Origin: an uncultured Gemmataceae bacterium
GTDB taxonomy: Bacteria > Planctomycetota > Planctomycetia > Gemmatales > Gemmataceae
DNA length: 64,000 bases
Reading direction: 5' to 3'
NCBI GenBank assembly: GCA_963750165.1
Contig: CAVVPN010000011.1
Location: 1,312,001 to 1,376,000, forward strand
Shown: positions 41,680-49,787 of the stretch, piece by piece
Numbering within the stretch: the stretch's first letter is position 1
How the letters are laid out: each line of letters begins with the position of its first letter
The notes under the pieces: model-generated
The model's input: only the letters and a program-made list of their open reading frames with translations
Databases searched by the model: none
What the model was told of the DNA's origin: nothing
Position numbers and translations under genes: made by a program

Positions 41680-43046
41680 ATGTCATCTAACAGTTCGAAT
41701 CGCGCGGCACTCACGCGCCGCGATTGGCTCCAGCTGTCGGCGGCGGGCGTGGTCGGTTATTCGCTGTCCGGTTGGCTGCCGCGCCTTGCGGCCCAGGCGG
41801 GCAACAACCCGCGGCGGCACCGCTCGTGCATCCTGTTGTGGATGAACGGCGGCCCGAGCCAGATGGACACCTTCGATTTGAAGCCCGGCACCGACAACGG
41901 CGGCCCCGTCCGCGAGATTCCGACCAGCGTGCCCGGCATCCGCATCAGCGAACACCTGCCGCGCGTGGCTCGCCAAATGAACGACCTCGCCATCATCCGC
42001 TCCATGAGCAGCCGCGAGGCCGACCACGGCCGGGCCACTTACCAGATGCGCACCGGCTACCTGCCGGGCGGCCCGGTCCAGTATCCGACGCTCGGGTCGC
42101 TGTTCTCCAAGGAACTGGAGCGGCCCGGCGCCGAACTGCCGAACTTCGTCAGCATCGCACCGTACCCGTTCTTCAGCCCGGCGGCCTACGCTCCTGGCTT
42201 CCTTGGTCCGCAGTACGCCCCGCTCGTGCTCGCCGGCGACCGGCAGGCGCTGCTGCCGATTCCCAACCAGCAGTCCAACTATCAGGCGGACCTGCAGGTG
42301 CAGGACCTCGAATTGCCCGACGAGGTCAGTGCCGGCCGCGCCGCGCCCGGTTGCAACTGCTCGACGAGATGGAAGGCGACTTCCTTGAAGAGCACGGCGG
42401 GCTGCCGGCACTGGGCCATCGCACCGCCTACCAGCACGCGGTCACGCTGATGCGTTCCACGGCGCGGCGTGCCTTCAACCTGGACGAGGAGCCGGCGCGG
42501 CTGCGCGACCGCTACGGCCGCAACCTGTTCGGCCAGGGCTGTCTGCTGGCGCGGCGGTTGATCGAGCGCGGCGTGCCGTTCGTCGAGGTGTCGCTGGCGA
42601 CGGTGGGCAACCTGGCCCTGGGCTGGGACACCCACATCAATAACTTCGCCGCCGTCCGCCAGATGAGTGCGGTGCTCGATCCGGCCTGGGCCACGCTGAT
42701 GGACGATCTGCGGGGGCGCGGCCTGCTCGACAGCACGCTGATCGTGTGGATGGGCGAATTCGGCCGCACGCCGCGCATCAACCCGCAGCAGGGCCGCGAT
42801 CACTGGGCCAACGCCTGGACGACCGTGCTGGGCGGCGGCGGCATTCGTGGCGGCCAGGCCATCGGCCGCACCAGCGCCGACGGCACCACGGTCGAGGCCG
42901 AGCGGCCCACCTCCGTGCCGGACTTCATCGCCACCATTGCCACCGCCCTCGGCCTCGATCTGACCGCCCAGAACATCTCCAACGTCGCTCGCCCCATCCG
43001 TCTCGTCGATGCCAGCGGCCGGCCGATCCGGGAGGTGCTCCGATGA
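41680..43046 (+). CDS. DUF1501 domain protein, frameshift near 42340
   Basis: GGPSQMDTFDLKP in the 41680 frame; ARRLIERGV, GEFGRTP and GRDHW in the second frame. Confidence 0.9.
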
Positions 43047-44866
43047 ACCAATTCTTCCTGTCGTGCAGGCTGCCGGCCTGCCTGGCGATTCTGGCGGCGG
43101 CCTTCGTCGTGACGCCTGGGTTGCTGGCTCAGGCGCCGGCGGTCCAGCAGCCTCCCAGGGCGCAACCGGCCGGCGAAGTGCAGGACTTCGTCTTTCTCGC
43201 CGAGGCCCGGCCGATCCTCGTCCGGCTCCGCGTTCAGGTGGACGGTGCGCCCGTCCAGGCCGGTTACGCTGCATTCCTGAAGCACCTGTTCGCCTACCTC
43301 GACGTGGACGGCAACGGTGTGCTGAACAAGGCGGAAGCCGAACGTATTCCGCCGCTGGATCAGATTCTCAGCGGTATGCCCGTGTCGGGCATCGCCGCGT
43401 TCGGCGGTGGCGGTGGACCGGCGGGACCGACCTTCGCCGACATCGACACCAACAAGGACGGCAAGGTGAACCTGGCGGAGTTGACGGCGTACTACCGCGG
43501 CAAAGGCTTCACGCCGTTCCAGACGGAGTTTGATGCGAAACAGGGGAACCAGTTCGCCATGCTGGGCGGCGGCGGCCCGAGCCGGCCGACGCCGGCCGCC
43601 ATCGGCGAGGCGGTGTTTAACTTGCTCGACACCGACAAGGACGGCAAGCTGACGGCGGCCGAACTGGCCGTCGCGGCGGACGTGCTGCTCCGCAAGGACG
43701 AGAACGAAGACGACCTGGTCACGCCGCGAGAACTGGTGCCGAACAAGGGGGGCCAGAAGGCCAAGGGCGGCGGCGGTATGATGGCCTTTGGCCTCGGCCA
43801 GGCCAAGACGCCCGAGAACCCCTACGTGGTGCTGGTCGATGCGAAGCGGCACGCCCCGAACCTGGTGAGTCATTTTCAGAAGCGGTACGGCGCGGGCATT
43901 GCCCCGGACCAGTTGAAGCTCAGCCGCAAGACGCTGGGTCTCGATGACAAGGCGTTTGCCGCGCTCGACGCCAACGGCGACGGCGTCGTGGACGCGAAGG
44001 AACTGGCGGGCTTTGTGAAGCGGACGCCGGACGTGGAACTGGTGTTGCGCCTGGGCACACTGGAGCTGAACGAGCAGCGCGTGCAAATGCTGGCCGGCAC
44101 CGGCGTCAGCTTCAAGGCACGGGACCACTTGGCCCTGTTCGACCTGGGCGCGACGCGGCTGGAGCTGCGCGGCTACGAGCACGAACGCACGGATCGCCTC
44201 GGCGGCATTGTGCGGACGCAGTTCCTGGCACAGTTCCAGCAGGCGGCCAAGGGTGGCAAGGGCGACCTGAACGCGAAACAAGCCGAGGCCAGCCCGCTCT
44301 TCCGCAGCGTGTTCAAGGCGATGGACCGCGATGGCGACGGCAAGGTTACCGAGCAGGAGTTCGTCGCTTACCTCGACAAGTTGGAGGACCTCAAGCGGCG
44401 TGCCCGTGCCGCCTGCGTGACGCTGGTGGTGGAGGACCAGAGCCGCGGCCTGTTCGACTTGCTGGACACCAACCGCGACGGCCACCTGAGTCTCCGTGAG
44501 TTGCGCGGCGCCGACCGCTTACTGCTGGAGCTGGGCTGCGTCCGCAAGGGCTTTTTGACGAAGGCCGACCTGCCGCGGAGTTACTTGTTGAAACTGCGTC
44601 GTGGTTCGGCCAAACAGGGCGGGTTCGATCTCAGCGAGGTGTTCGAGCAGCTTTACCAGGGTTCGTACGAGGAATCCGGCGGTGACTACGCCACCGCCGG
44701 CCCGATGTGGTTCCGCAAGATGGACCGCAACCGCGACGGCGACGTGTCGCGCAAGGAGTTCCTCGGCACCGACGATCAGTTCCGTGAGATCGACGCGGAC
44801 GGCGACGGCCTCATCAGCGCCGCGGAGGCGGAGCGCTACGACGCGCTGTGCCGCAAGAAGCAGTGA
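43043..44866 (+). CDS. Secreted multi-EF-hand protein
   Basis: Repeated DxDxDG loops (DVDGNG, DTNKDG, DTDKDG, DANGDG, DRDGDG, DTNRDG, DRNRDG, DADGDG). Confidence 0.9.
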   Translation: MNQFFLSCRLPACLAILAAAFVVTPGLLAQAPAVQQPPRAQPAGEVQDFVFLAEARPILVRLRVQVDGAPVQAGYAAFLKHLFAYLDVDGNGVLNKAEAERIPPLDQILSGMPVSGIAAFGGGGGPAGPTFADIDTNKDGKVNLAELTAYYRGKGFTPFQTEFDAKQGNQFAMLGGGGPSRPTPAAIGEAVFNLLDTDKDGKLTAAELAVAADVLLRKDENEDDLVTPRELVPNKGGQKAKGGGGMMAFGLGQAKTPENPYVVLVDAKRHAPNLVSHFQKRYGAGIAPDQLKLSRKTLGLDDKAFAALDANGDGVVDAKELAGFVKRTPDVELVLRLGTLELNEQRVQMLAGTGVSFKARDHLALFDLGATRLELRGYEHERTDRLGGIVRTQFLAQFQQAAKGGKGDLNAKQAEASPLFRSVFKAMDRDGDGKVTEQEFVAYLDKLEDLKRRARAACVTLVVEDQSRGLFDLLDTNRDGHLSLRELRGADRLLLELGCVRKGFLTKADLPRSYLLKLRRGSAKQGGFDLSEVFEQLYQGSYEESGGDYATAGPMWFRKMDRNRDGDVSRKEFLGTDDQFREIDADGDGLISAAEAERYDALCRKKQ

Positions 44867-45074
44867 GGCGCGGCGGTCGAAGTCCAGATCGTCAGAAAAA
44901 AGTAGCTGAATTTGTGCTGGGTTCCGGCTGGCGTCACTGCGGGCCGGAACCCAGCATTTTTGCGCGAGGCCGCGGGTTGCGCGCATCGATCTGACACACC
45001 ACGGGCGATGGGATCGACGCGCGGTCCCGTGGCACGTACAATCGGTAATGTTCCTCGTTTCTGGAGGCGGGCCG

Positions 45075-45419
45075 ATGGCGGGTAGACAATTCACTCTGCA
45101 CTCGATACGCACGAGCAAGCAGGGTCAGCAAATCAACGTCGGTAAAGATCACGAAGAATACCGGGCGATCGTGAACTCGCTCACGATGCACCCAGAAGAC
45201 ATGAAGGCGCTGAGCATCGCGTCGGGTGGGATGGTCCGGCTGCGATCCAGGGAGGGCGAGGCCGTTTTCGTGTGCCAGCCGGGGAATGTGCCCGAGGGGA
45301 TGATCTTCGTGCCGTACGGCCCTCCGACCTGCCGTCTGTACGGCGGCGAAACGGACGGGACGGGGATGCCCACCACGAAGGGCTGGGAAGTGGAGGTCGA
45401 GCCGATCACGACCGAGTAG
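45075..45419 (+). CDS. fwdD: Formylmethanofuran dehydrogenase subunit D-like (molybdopterin dinucleotide-binding domain)
   Basis: RTSKQG, MHPEDM, VPEGMIFVPYGP, TDGTGMPTTKG; GGAGG RBS; first gene of the fwd cluster. Confidence 0.85.
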   Translation: MAGRQFTLHSIRTSKQGQQINVGKDHEEYRAIVNSLTMHPEDMKALSIASGGMVRLRSREGEAVFVCQPGNVPEGMIFVPYGPPTCRLYGGETDGTGMPTTKGWEVEVEPITTE

Positions 45420-45443
45420 CTCAATTGGAGCAGGAGAGCAGCG

Positions 45444-45638
45444 ATGGAAGTCAAGCAAGGGGACGGCGAAAGCGCCCCGCATTTCGTCGATGACACCGGG
45501 TTGGGCCAGGTCCAGGCCTGGGAAGAAATCGACACCGGGCGGTTCATGCCGCGCCGCATCCGGGGCAGTTACCAGGGGCGGGCGCTCGGCTGAGCGTTCG
45601 TCATTCCGTCCGGTTCGGACGGCCAGATAAGCCGATAA
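45444..45638 (+). CDS. Small ORF (49 aa to TGA; 64 aa if TGA is read as Sec), candidate selenopeptide or leader
   Basis: GGAGCAGGAG RBS; ATG at 45444; TGA at 45591-45593; hairpin CCGTCCG-GTT-CGGACGG at 45606-45622; next in-frame stop is TAA at 45636-45638. Confidence 0.55.
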
Positions 45639-45648
45639 AGGGAGCGAC

Positions 45649-46979
45649 ATGGAACTGAACATTGTGAAGAACGCGACCTGCACGTTCTGCGGTTGCGTTT
45701 GTGACGATATCGAACTGCACACCGACGACGTTCGCATCACCCACACCAAAAACGCCTGCGTCCTTGGAGTGAGTTGGTTCAAAAACCACACCGCGGAACG
45801 GCTGTACCCCGACGCGCTGATCGACGGCCAGCCGGCCTCCGTCGATGCTGCCGTCGAGGCGGCGGCCCGTCACCTCTACGATGCCCATTTGCCTCTGGTG
45901 TACGGCCTGAGCAACATCACCTGCGAGGCGCAACGCGAGTCGGTGGCCCTCGCCGAATTGATCGGCGGCGTGATCGACAGTCATACCTCGCTCTGACACG
46001 GTCCAACCGAGATCGCCGCCCAGTTGGGTGGCAAGGTGACCTGTACGCTGGGTGAAGTCAAGAATCGTGCCGACCTGATCGTCTACTGGGGGGGCAACCC
46101 CGCGGAGTGCCATCCGCGCCATTTTACCAAGTACACTCTGACGCAGAAGGGCCGATTCGTACCCAACGGCCGCAAGGACCGCACGATGGTCCTCGTGGAC
46201 ATCCGCGAGACCGCCAGCGCCAAGGCCGCCGACCTCTTTCTGCAAGTGCGGCCGGCCAGGGATTTCGAGGTCATCACCGCCCTGCGCGCGCTCATCAAGG
46301 GCCAGCCGGTTGATACGAAACTCGTCGCGGAAACCGGGTTGACCGTCAAGCAACTCCAGGAATTTGCCGACCGCATGAAGTCGTGCAAATTCGGAGTGCT
46401 TTTCTTCGGCATGGGCCTGTCGATGACGCGCGGCAAGCACATGAACTCGGCCGCCCTGCTGACGCTGGCGGCCGAGCTGAATGCCTTCACCAAGTTCGTG
46501 GCCATGCCAATGCGCGGCCACGGCAACGTCACCGGCGGCGACGTAGTCATGCGCTGGACGACGGGCTACCCGTTCGGGGTCAACCTGGCACGCGGTTACC
46601 CGCGCTTCAACCCGGGCGAGTATTCGACCATTGACCTGCTGATCCGCGGCGACACCGATGCCGCGCTCATCCTGGGAGCCGATCCCGGGGCGACCATGCC
46701 GCAGCCGGCCATCGACCACCTGGCGCGCATCCCGACAATCGTGCTGGACCCGAAGGTGACGCACACGAGCCGGCTGGCGCGGGTCCACATCACGACGGCA
46801 GTCACGGGAATCAGCGCCCCGGCACCGCTTACCGGATGGACGAGATCCCGCTGCCGCTGCGGCCGGCGCTCAAGTCGCCGTATCCGACGGATGAAGAGGT
46901 ACTCCGCCGCATTTACCGGGCGGTTGCCGCGAAGCCGCCGCTGCCCGTGCCGGTGAGGCTGCCGTTGGCGGCGGTGTAG
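45649..46979 (+). CDS. fwdB: Formylmethanofuran dehydrogenase subunit B, predicted selenoprotein; frameshift near 46820
   Basis: CTFCGCVCDD Fe-S motif; DSHTSL-TGA-HGPT in frame with CTLGEVKNRAD, HPRH and MRGHGNV; the shifted C-terminus reads GTAYRMDEIP. Confidence 0.9.
45994..46041 (+). promoter_or_regulatory. Putative bacterial SECIS element of fwdB
   Basis: TGA, then stem GCCGCCC/GGGTGGC (46015-46032) with loop AGTT starting 25 nt after the TGA; possible lower stem GGTC/GACC. Confidence 0.65.
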
Positions 46980-47071: not shown

Positions 47072-47240
47072 GGCGCCGCATCTCGACGTATGAAAAAGTT
47101 GGCGTTCTTGGCGTTCTTGGCGTCCTTGCTGTGGCAACCGCCGCCGATGGCTGTCGCGCCGTGCCACCCATACGGAGCCAGGGTGCCAACTCTCGACGTA
47201 TGAAAAAGTTGGCCCCCTTGGCAGTCTTGGCCCCCTTGCT
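47072..47240 (+). repeat. 59-bp dispersed repeat, copies 2 and 3 (110-bp period)
   Basis: 47072-47130 is identical to 17656-17714; 47182-47240 is a variant. Confidence 0.9.
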
Positions 47241-47332
47241 GCGACAGCGCAGGCCCCTGCTGGTCAAGCTGTGCCCGCCGTCCCACCGCGTGCGCGATCC
47301 GCGTGCGACCGCTCTAAAATGAGACCAAACCC

Positions 47333-48969
47333 GTGTTGCGAATCACTGGCGGAAAAGTCTACGACCCAGCCAACAACGTCAACGGCGTCATTCAGGACGT
47401 TTGCATCAACGACGGCCGCATCGTCGCCGACGTTCAAGGCGGTCGCACCATCGACGCGACGGGCATGGTGGTGTTTCCCGGCGGCGTCGATGTGCATACG
47501 CATGTCGCGGGGGCCGCGCTCAACTTTGCCCGCGCGATGATCCCGGAGGACCACCGCCGGCACCAGGAATTCGTGCGCACGCTCGTGACGCGCGGCGGCA
47601 TCGGCGGGTCCACGCCCACGACCTTCATTACCGGCTATCTTTACGCCGGCCTCGGTTATACGACCGTGAATGAAGCGGCCGTTCCCATGCTGTCGGCCCG
47701 GCACACGCACGAAGAACTGCGCGACACGCCCATCGTCGATAAGACCTGCTGCGTGCTCATGGCGAACAACGAGCTGCTGCTCGATCAGATCGAGGCCGGC
47801 GAGCTCGAACGCGCCCGGCACATCGTCGCCTGGAACATCTGGGCGGCCAAGTCGTACGGCGTCAAGGCGGTCAACCCCGGCGGGGTAACGGCCTGGAAGT
47901 GGGGCAAGGACGCCAAGAGCCTGCATGATCCGATCGCCGGCTTCGAGTCGGTGACGCCGGGGAAGATCATCTCGGCACTCGCCAGGATCGTGGACGAACT
48001 CGGTTTGCCCCATCCGCTGCACCTGCACTGTAACAACCTGGGCGCGCCGGGCAACTACAGCACCACGCTGGAGACGATGAAACTCCTGGAAGGCAACCGG
48101 GCGCACATCGCCCACATGCAGTACCACGCCTACGGCGGCGACGACTGGCCCACGATGCGCTCGGAATCGGTCAAACTCGCCGAGTACTTCAACGCCCATC
48201 CGAACCTGACGACCGACGCCGGCGCGGTGCTGTTTGGCACCACGGTGACGATCACGGCTGACGGTCCCTGGCAGCACCTTCTCTACAAACTGACCGGCCG
48301 CAAGTGGGGCAACCTCGATGTCGAGAACGAGACCGGCTGCGGCATTGTCCCCTACACGTACAAGGAAAAAAACCTCGTCAATGCCGTGCAGTGGGCCGTC
48401 GGACTGGAACTGCTACTGCTCATCGACGACCCCTGGCGGATTTATCTGACCACCGATCACCCCAACGGCGCGGCGTTCTGGCGCTATCCGGAAATCATTC
48501 GACTGCTGATGGACGCGGACTTTCGCAAGGAGCAGTTGAAAAAACTGCCGTCCAGGGCGCTTCAGCGCATCTTCCTTCCGGAACTGAACCGGCAATACAC
48601 GCTCTATGAGATTGCCATCATCACCTCGGCGGGGCCGGCGCGATGCTCGGCTTGTCGAAGAAAGGAAACCTGGGCATCGGCGCCGATGCGGACGTGGCCA
48701 TCTACAACGAGAGCAAGGATATTGTCCAGATGTTCTCCTACCCGCGCTACGTCATCAAGGCGGGCGAGGTGGTCATTGAGGAAGGCGAAATCCGCAGGAC
48801 CGTTGAGGGCAAGGGGCTCATCGTTCGGCCTACTTACGACGAGAAGATCGAGGACTACATCCGCCCGAAGTTTCAGCAATATTACACGATGTCGTTCGAC
48901 AATTATCCCGTGGAGTTGGAGCGCGTCGAACACCCAGACATTCATCCCTGCAAGCAACCGACCCAATGA
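47333..48969 (+). CDS. fwdA: Formylmethanofuran dehydrogenase subunit A (amidohydrolase), frameshift near 48640
   Basis: GGVDVHTH, GYTT, KAVNPGG, HPLHLHCNNLG, QWAVGLE, TTDHPNG; C-terminus KGNLGIGADADVAIY in the 48643 frame. Confidence 0.92.
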
Positions 48970-49787
48970 CCAGGACGATCTTCACTCTCAAGGAACGCCC
49001 GAGCATTCCGCTGGAGACCGAGGTTTTCTCGCCGGACGTGATCGCGCCGCTGGGACACGACGAGGTGTGCGCCCTGCCCGTGTTCCTGGGCAAGCGCCAG
49101 TACCGCATGGATGATTTCTTCGCGGTCGAGGGGGCGGGCAGCGACGAGCTGGAGTTACACGGGGACGCCGGTCGGGTGAAATGGATCGGTCGCGGGATGA
49201 CGCACGGCAAGATCACCATCCTTGGCGACGCCGGGATGCACCTCGGGGCCTATCTGAAGGGCGGCACCATCGAGGTGACAGGCAGCGCCTCGGACTGGGT
49301 CGGTGCCGAAATGACCGGCGGCTGCATCCGCATCGCCGGGAACGCGGGCGGACAAATCGGGTCGGCGTACCGTGGCAGCCTCGCCGGGATGAAGGGCGGG
49401 ACCATCCTCGTCGGCGGTTCGGCCGGCATGGAGATCGGCATGCGCATGCGCCGGGGAGTGATCGCCGTCCGGGGCCCGGTACGCGACTTCGCCGGTTTGC
49501 AGATGAAGGGCGGCACCATCGTCCTGATGAGTGGGGCCGAGATTCGCACCGGCGCGTGGATGGTGCGCGGAACGATTGTGTCTCTGAAGCCGCTTCGTCT
49601 CTTGCCCACCTTCGCCTACGCCTGTGAGTACAACCCCACGTTCTTGCGCGTGTACGCGAAGAGTCTCCAGGCAATGGGCTTCTCCATTCCCCATGAAGAT
49701 CAGGCCGGCGCCTATCAGCGCTACACGGGTGATACGTCCGTCCCTGGCAAGGGAGAGATCCTCGTCTGGCGACCCCACGTCTCATGA
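48966..49787 (+). CDS. fwdC: Formylmethanofuran dehydrogenase subunit C
   Basis: GXGXG beta-helix repeats, GSAYRGSLAGMKGG, MRRG, GKGEI. Confidence 0.92.
   Translation: MTRTIFTLKERPSIPLETEVFSPDVIAPLGHDEVCALPVFLGKRQYRMDDFFAVEGAGSDELELHGDAGRVKWIGRGMTHGKITILGDAGMHLGAYLKGGTIEVTGSASDWVGAEMTGGCIRIAGNAGGQIGSAYRGSLAGMKGGTILVGGSAGMEIGMRMRRGVIAVRGPVRDFAGLQMKGGTIVLMSGAEIRTGAWMVRGTIVSLKPLRLLPTFAYACEYNPTFLRVYAKSLQAMGFSIPHEDQAGAYQRYTGDTSVPGKGEILVWRPHVS

Follow-up and report, generated by a model that had tools for sequence, protein, structure and literature searches.

A small gene between fwdD and Sec-type fwdB of many planctomycetes and some acidobacteria very likely encodes a selenium-containing mini-protein

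Results

The fwd locus and its small gene

The window analysed here, i.e. the whole stretch of 64,000 nucleotides from an uncultured Gemmataceae bacterium, contains a fwd operon comprising fwdD, fwdB, fwdA and fwdC, without fwdF/G (Table 1). Between fwdD and fwdB lies a small open reading frame (ORF) interrupted by an in-frame TGA, for which we use the provisional label fwdU. A preliminary description of this DNA had placed the ORF, its ribosome-binding site, the TGA, the stem that follows it, the Shine-Dalgarno (SD) sequence and ATG of fwdB and the in-frame TGA of fwdB, and all of them are where it put them. A promoter-like match precedes fwdD, so the small ORF would be the second gene of the operon rather than a 5' leader. 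Clustering of the neighbourhoods of 80 loci revealed no constant neighbour besides fwdABCD.

Several other elements were observed in the vicinity. A gene for a large multi-EF-hand protein (42746-44866) is located directly 5' of fwdD and is followed by an inverted repeat (~44918-44960), while two imperfect, REP-like copies of a ~60-nt unit (CTCGACGTATGAAAAAGTTGG...) lie between fwdB and fwdA (47080-47250). Frameshifts at ~42400 (in a DUF1501-like gene), 46820-46835 (3' end of fwdB), 47250-47330 and 48610 (fwdA) resemble long-read assembly indels; those in fwdB and fwdA are likely to be just that, and the former makes the predicted protein P0002 end early, at residue 394. Two homologues of ftr/fhcD are encoded elsewhere in the genome (C11:1766355-1767214 and C3:1508342-1509229) and none in the fwd operon.

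Table 1. Features of the fwd locus (positions in the window)
Feature	Position	Strand	Remarks
Sigma-70-like promoter match	45014..45042	+	Upstream of fwdD; consensus match only, 1 found vs 0.2 expected
fwdD, molybdopterin-binding domain IV subunit	45075..45419	+	Pfam PF01568; NF042908 below cut-off; PDB FwdD matches
Clade-specific FwdD cysteine C86, YGPPTC	45330..45332	+	Inferred candidate partner of the peptide Sec
Small-ORF Shine-Dalgarno AGGAG	45432..45436	+	Sequence
Small (predicted) selenoprotein gene, 64 aa with U50	45444..45638	+	ATG 45444, TAA 45636-45638
Conserved core W26-P55 of the small ORF	45519..45608	+	W-x5-GR[YF][MQ]PRRx[RK]GSxxGRxLG-U-xFx[VILA]P
In-frame TGA, predicted selenocysteine codon of the small ORF	45591..45593	+	TGA in 87/87 distinct loci
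Putative bacterial SECIS, upper stem-loop	45606..45622	+	6-bp stem, loop GGUUC at 45612-45616
fwdB Shine-Dalgarno AGGGAG	45639..45644	+	Predicted 59% unpaired
fwdB, Sec-type	45649..46979	+	ATG 45649; TIGR03129 over cut-off
fwdB in-frame TGA	45994-45996	+	Metal-ligand position, HTSL-U-HGP
fwdB SECIS candidate GCCGCCC-AGUU-GGGUGGC	46015..46032	+	Near-identical among homologues
fwdA	47333..48969	+	TIGR03121 over cut-off; frameshift near 48610
fwdC	48966..49787	+	TIGR03122 over cut-off

Conservation of the small ORF and selection on its product

Among the best 30 fwdD-anchored loci of the family, the ORF is present between fwdD and fwdB in 28, the remaining two being cut by contig ends. GTDB loci with the ORF belong to Planctomycetota, to Acidobacteriota (including Vicinamibacterales) and, in one case, to a MAG labelled Alcaligenaceae; among the relatives that have names, Gemmataceae and other Planctomycetota predominate, and beyond the family the ORF is rarely found (3 clear matches in 250 genomes of the phylum). 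At the protein level, a profile search matched 2974 clusters formed at 90% identity, of which the best 120 were inspected, and 216 representatives formed at 50% identity, of which the best 150 were. The small ORF is thus confirmed by comparative analysis as a conserved gene, far beyond chance.

The in-frame codon is TGA in 80/80 GTDB loci and, after de-duplication, in 87/87 distinct loci, and neither TAA nor TAG was ever encountered; the preliminary description had expected homologues to have TGA or Cys here and had regarded TAA or TAG at this position as fatal to its proposal. Gene callers usually stop at such a TGA, and they truncate the small gene at this UGA "stop": in two sets of proteins retrieved from databases, 143/151 and 146/150 have the LG just before it as their last residues. 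Forms that read through with Cys, Trp or Arg in place of the TGA are rare (7/151 retrieved proteins) and keep the tail; a Cys form with a normal tail was seen once, on a single contig (P0043), among the best 120 of 2974 clusters and the best 150 of 216 representatives.

The 25 N-terminal residues are acidic and variable, conservation begins abruptly 24 codons 5' of the UGA, and the conserved core is followed by a tail that is again variable. A second Cys at position -7 is found in only 29/87 distinct loci, hence there is no intrinsic CxxU-like motif. The read-through tail is at least 12 aa long in all loci, insertions in it preserve the frame, and no in-frame stop occurs within 11 codons 3' of the TGA in the loci scored. 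Phe at +2 is present in 87/87 distinct loci, encoded by both TTC and TTT, and a hydrophobic residue at +4 is likewise selected. For loci found via fwdD or fwdB and not through the peptide itself, pN/pS amounts to 0.28-0.33 in the region preceding the UGA, 0.48 in codons +1..+4 (between the UGA and the stem) and 0.95 in the far tail (codons +11..+14), as compared with 0.96-2.2 in the other frames for the pre-UGA region and codons +1..+4; these sums include, among 64 rows, two off-target regex matches that lack the W, L, G or F. We regard this set as the fair estimate, since the search pattern used for the 80 GTDB loci itself imposes part of the invariance seen there at positions -18..-9. By these measures, selection acts at the protein level both before and after the UGA.

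Of the 118 homologous loci that could be scored, 85 have an SD-like sequence before the start. Alone, the peptide is predicted to be mostly disordered (pLDDT 55.6), with a predicted β-hairpin at residues 26-36. In two RNA libraries, contigs of relatives span the junction from the UGA through the hairpin to fwdB, but they may derive from DNA and are not evidence of expression; only 5-7% of the words are present in the RNA runs.

The hairpin downstream of the UGA

Twelve nucleotides after the TGA begins a stem, CCGTCCG/CGGACGG, which the preliminary description had presented as a perfect 7-bp stem with a GTT loop. The stem is indeed present, while its conserved form comprises 6 bp and a 5-nt loop, [G/A]GU[U/C/A]C; the closing G-C pair is optional, being broken in 6 of 64 distinct sequences. 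Taken as a single sequence the hairpin is not beyond chance (fold z-scores about -1), and the same TGA-N12-stem-loop geometry occurs at 15 sites in the 9.6-Mb genome, of which, by eye, only the small ORF and the formate dehydrogenase are real Sec sites. The case therefore rests on comparative evidence. In the alignment of the 64 distinct sequences, 95% of the cells of the 6-bp stem are paired, with 28 double changes; this covariation was reached in 0/500 shuffles, controls slid along the alignment gave at most 50% pairing, and RNAalifold recovers the same stem. The RNA alignment leaves out 22 of the 87 loci, most of which carry 3 additional nt ahead of the stem. A conserved hairpin with compensatory changes, as the preliminary description had anticipated, is thereby borne out. 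The double changes are mostly non-synonymous, exchanging Ser/Pro together with Asp/Gly, which indicates that RNA structure dictates the stem-encoding part of the tail.

The bacterial SECIS (bSECIS) consensus, as drawn in Fig. 2 of PMC13188914, has a loop of 3-9 nt with a G in its first two positions, a stem of 4-16 bp, a spacing of 16-37 nt and an MFE of at most -7.5. The hairpin of the window, with a 5-nt loop starting with GG, a stem of 6-7 bp, a spacing of 18 nt and -12.6 kcal/mol, lies within all four constraints stated in that figure, and the homologous hairpins reach -7.5 or lower in 86/87 cases. It differs from the consensus in covering most of a short C-terminal tail, the sequence of which is largely RNA-dictated. 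The Sec-type formate dehydrogenase of the same genome has the layout of the small-ORF hairpin: a TGA, 12 nt, a 6-bp stem and the loop GGUCU. The gene for its alpha subunit (ARI-U-HSA) is located on the minus strand of C3 at ~1169930.

An additional helix, TCGGCT/AGCCGA, had been proposed to enclose the hairpin. It can form on paper, yet only 58% of the alignment cells are paired and it is absent from the predicted MFE structure, so we do not retain it. Judged by its covariation and layout, the hairpin behaves as a SECIS, and the UGA is very likely read as Sec.

Selenium machinery and association with Sec-type FwdB

The preliminary description had pointed out that the idea would fall if the genome lacked the Sec machinery. 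On the contrary, tRNA-Sec (selC), selA, selB and selD are all present, each scoring over its curated cut-off. By eye, ORFs resembling selD, selB and selA were also seen in a few Pirellulaceae/Planctomycetaceae loci, within the 6 kb that precede the fwd operon (L095:1819-5066 and L066:680-2113).

In a sample of 151 genomes of the family, all 65 genomes with a Sec-FwdB carry the ORF, a count in which 25 weak FwdB matches stand outside the listing and kin are not independent. Conversely, 65 of 66 ORF-bearing genomes have a Sec-FwdB, and in the 66th the contig ends right after the ORF; the neighbouring fwdB contains the TGA in all 76 GTDB loci in which it could be read. When metagenomes were scanned for the FwdB/Fdh Sec motif (120 of ~1100 stretches covered), the ORF was found in 32 of 33 HTSL-U-HGP loci with at least 450 nt upstream of fwdB. 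The single locus of the Sec-FwdB clade with enough upstream DNA but neither ORF nor fwdD (L162) has a fwdB whose 5' end looks disrupted. None of 34 more distant metagenome loci, mostly formate dehydrogenases, contains the ORF; one of them (L208) encodes an archaeal-type Sec-FwdB with no such ORF upstream, hence Sec-FwdB is not universally dependent on it.

fwdD was matched in 93 of the 151 family genomes, and Sec-type and Cys-type FwdBD form separate clades. In the sister clade with Cys-type fwdD-fwdB (~61% identical) the ORF is missing from 18/18 loci, although selA is present in 4/4 of the genomes tested for it. The expectation that the ORF would occur only beside Sec-type fwdB thus agrees with what was found in both clades. 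Genome G028 has a Cys FwdB (L125:4011-5348) nested inside the Sec clade, with a relic SECIS hairpin and with selA present, an apparent Sec-to-Cys reversion; neither fwdD nor the small ORF was found in this genome, a single case that is 86% complete. It is possible that G028 is a snapshot of an Fwd decaying toward the cofactor-less Fhc.

Fusions with FwdD and a clade-specific cysteine

Among 17 longer homologues of the peptide, 7 have an intact FwdD that continues in frame into the peptide core; the other 10 were set aside as frameshifted, partial or chimeric. P0164 is an unrelated repeat protein and was dropped. Four of the fusions are compact, lacking the variable N-terminus (P0305, P0311, P0312 and P0314), and in the 90% cluster of P0314 the 12 members read comprise six fused and six split forms. 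One fusion was seen in DNA (L190), complete with the TGA, the hairpin and a separate fwdB SD, which amounts to 1/114 among DNA loci. A fused FwdD-peptide query matched in 4 of 201 genomes from the order of G401. The fusions could be tolerated accidents of adjacency.

An AlphaFold model of a natural fusion shows a confident FwdD fold and a β-hairpin for the W..GRYM segment, which is the only ordered part of the peptide; the Sec-bearing stretch (129-140) has a pLDDT under 50, and owing to this disorder the model supports no Se-S contact. When used as a query in a fold search, it matched FwdD over ~111 columns only.

The FwdD encoded beside the small ORF has a Cys in the motif YGPPTC in 107/107 distinct sequences, as opposed to 0/17 in the Cys-FwdB clade. 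This residue, Cys86, aligns with the Asn of the archaeal GPWAN motif. That Asn contacts the pterin, and Cys86 may therefore be buried.

Discussion

A probable micro-subunit of Sec-type Fwd

Many planctomycetes and some acidobacteria share a small gene, placed between fwdD and Sec-type fwdB, that very likely encodes a selenium-containing mini-protein. The preliminary description had offered two readings, and the first of them, a new selenoprotein subunit of 64 aa, is strongly supported by the invariant TGA, the covarying hairpin, the selection on codons after the UGA, the Sec machinery and the restriction to Sec-type fwdB. Our preferred interpretation, built from sequence comparison, is that the product is probably a Sec micro-subunit, likely docking on FwdD/FwdB of the Sec-type Mo/W formylmethanofuran dehydrogenase, with its own Sec likely acting as a redox guard. 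A micro-subunit tethered to FwdD is favoured by the unconserved helix, the accessible fwdB SD, the long spacers before fwdB (see below) and the FwdD fusions; the natural fusions would fit a stable association with FwdB/FwdD, and in the model of a fusion only the hairpin of the peptide is ordered.

According to this proposal, SelB-dependent read-through of the UGA would yield the 64-residue peptide, which would bind via the W..GR[YF]MPRR hairpin and a basic patch, and its Sec would guard the redox state of the cofactor site. FwdD caps the pterin site (PMC6926001). In the last and least certain step, which we put forward tentatively, a reversible Se-S bond with Cys86 of FwdD would park the enzyme in an oxygen-protected state. 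Such a guard is suggested by the combination of a peptide Sec placed on FwdD, a FwdD Cys conserved along with it and, as a precedent, the D. vulgaris FdhAB switch. It is conceivable, if doubtful, that a Sec-only micro-subunit with practically no Cys counterpart serves as a reversible Se-S switch on the domain IV subunit of a Mo/W formylmethanofuran dehydrogenase that would depend on selenium twice over, and that planctomycetes and acidobacteria thereby run a methanogen-type C1 enzyme in oxygen.

Other explanations

Alternatively, the peptide could be a transient maturation factor, a Se carrier or cofactor-loading chaperone for FwdBD (e.g. for a terminal Se ligand) that is absent from the final enzyme. 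Sec that is apparently not replaceable by Cys, the loss of the ORF together with fwdD in G028 and a small, largely disordered product with a short binding motif would all suit this role, which we nevertheless consider rather unlikely: the permanent fusion to FwdD in some lineages better fits a stoichiometric part, FwdBD of the Cys clade retains its cofactor motifs without the peptide, and we know of no precedent for it.

It is also unlikely that the conserved 24 residues serve as a nascent-chain arrest sequence, holding the ribosome in the tunnel until SelB-Sec-tRNA arrives and thereby tuning downstream expression or the fate of the mRNA. Following an unconstrained N-terminus, conservation sets in abruptly 24 codons ahead of the UGA, a span similar in length to the arrest motifs of TnaC and SecM; the PRR/Gly-rich basic motif is invariant, the isolated peptide is predicted to be mostly disordered, and arrest is compatible with a C-terminal fusion. 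On the other hand, the residues after the UGA (Phe+2 and the hydrophobic +4) are selected as well, the hairpin, predicted to be ordered, points to a binding element, the downstream spacing is not conserved, and a literature search on arrest peptides at Sec codons turned up nothing relevant.

The second reading of the preliminary description was a leader, in which Sec read-through would unfold an RNA structure and couple translation to fwdB; in its general form, the UGA would be part of a selenium-sensing cis element that delivers ribosomes to fwdB, the peptide being incidental. The ORF occurs only beside Sec-fwdB, and the near-absence of Cys forms among the retrieved proteins also fits a sensor role; Cys homologues are usual for most redox selenoproteins, unlike for the small ORF (PMC13188914). 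In 59 loci, the stop reached by read-through overlaps the fwdB start in 11 cases, some of which have weak SDs, and lies 0-30 nt away in 29 more; in a further 4 the distance is 31-54 nt, whereas in the remaining 15 it is 55-1366 nt, and these long spacers contain palindromes or whole genes, some of them toxin-antitoxin (TA)-like. The helix meant to occlude the SD is unconserved (58% of cells paired), and the SD is not predicted to be occluded, with unpaired probabilities of 0.53 and 0.57 with and without the upstream RNA, respectively. Neither a conserved alternative structure nor a fixed coupling to the downstream start, by which a leader or attenuator would be recognized, was found in these loci. 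Besides, some lineages have the peptide fused to FwdD, its amino acids are under strong selection, the ORF is the second gene of the operon, and the UGA of fwdB itself already confers Se dependence. The leader proposal is accordingly poorly supported as an account of the main function, and selenium sensing in general appears improbable to us; in the loci whose ORF stop overlaps the fwdB start (11/59), translational coupling may still arise, probably as a by-product. As a separate observation, TA pairs (HicB/HicA-like and AbiEii/Rv0078B-like) and palindromic repeats have been repeatedly inserted 5' of fwdB in both clades (L131, L132:1069-1529, L133, L136, L137, L143, L098, L272, L274:709-1483 and L086), the TA identity having been checked with Pfam for L132, L274 and L086.

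Finally, that translation simply ends at the TGA after 49 aa and that the hairpin is an unrelated RNA element (a processing site or a SelB-binding operator) would agree with the database proteins ending at LG and with the insignificant fold of the single sequence, but is very improbable in view of the absence of TAA/TAG from 87 distinct loci, the lack of in-frame stops within 11 codons in scored loci, the Phe+2 that is invariant despite synonymous change, the SECIS geometry identical to that of the genome's Sec-FDH and the tail retained in the rare C/W/R forms.

Significance

A large predicted selenoprotein family, corresponding to the 2974 clusters that match the profile, is added to those known, and it is invisible to searches that rely on Cys/Sec pairs; PMC12013277 allows that its method may miss proteins without Cys homologues. 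This suggests a whole class of uncounted Sec-only small proteins. Expression of this CO2/formate-interconverting enzyme would need an unannotated small gene, and if the peptide does confer oxygen tolerance, it would represent a compact protective module for Mo/W CO2 reductases.

Comparison with known systems

Searches of Pfam, NCBIfam, Rfam and PDB sequences with the peptide gave no informative match, the PDB returning only chance matches to histones; for 26 family members, NCBIfam 20.0 matched 0/26 and Pfam 1/26, the latter by chance (E 0.14). Table 1 of PMC13188914 catalogues 119 selenoprotein families, bacterial and archaeal FwdB among them, none of which corresponds to the peptide in name or context. 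Our literature searches found no description of the peptide, which the supplements and the contents of BSepDB could contain, and term searches of the main texts of PMC13326102, PMC12013277, PMC7331816 and PMC5020050 retrieved no mention of it. It appears that we are dealing with a real and apparently uncatalogued, nearly Sec-only family of small selenoproteins attached to bacterial Sec-Fwd.

Fhc of methylotrophs and planctomycetes is one of the related systems (PMC6926001, PMC5020050): FhcABC is homologous to FwdABC, but unlike the Fwd of the window, Fhc has no FwdD, pterin or catalytic Cys. PMC5020050 gives fwdD as absent from Planctomycetes, a phylum in which we find a bacterial Fwd retaining both FwdD, matched in the 93 family genomes above, and the Sec ligand; PMC7331816 mentions that its data lack bacterial representatives of FwdB.

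The operon of the window encodes homologues of FwdA, B, C and D of the archaeal W/Mo FwdABCD(FG) complex (PDB 5t5i, 8rja, 9sfi; Sec-FwdB, TIGR03129), sharing the catalytic Cys/Sec-His motif and the domain IV subunit. Against the archaeal FwdD chains of 126-137 aa, the alignment of the bacterial FwdD stops at about residue 112, and the peptide, where fused, occupies the chain position of the archaeal FwdD tail without any sequence likeness to it. FwdD of the archaeal complex has Asn where that of the window clade has Cys. To our knowledge, archaeal Fwd includes no small Sec subunit. FwdB is full length against the solved FwdB structures (a comparison made with the 83% identical G028 protein), and as the peptide has no homology to FwdB, the idea that it is a split-off piece of that subunit was ruled out.

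VhuU, in concept the nearest precedent, is a separately encoded small peptide too. As a very small Sec peptide serving a metalloenzyme, the Methanococcus [NiFeSe] hydrogenase (MvhA/VhuA/VhuU, NF041786), it resembles the product of fwdU, with which it has no sequence match and which lacks the UxxC motif of VhuU (PMC13188914, Table 1). Moreover, VhuU supplies a missing metal ligand, whereas the FwdB described here keeps its own Sec ligand (U-H-G-P). In function, an analogy only, the proposed guard recalls FdhAB of D. vulgaris, in which, according to PMC11134731, a disulfide redox switch (C872) protects the enzyme from oxygen. In both cases a reversible chalcogen bond would toggle a W-bis-PGD enzyme between an active and an oxygen-protected state; in FdhAB the disulfide is intramolecular, while here Se and S would be bonded across two subunits, one of them a separate peptide.
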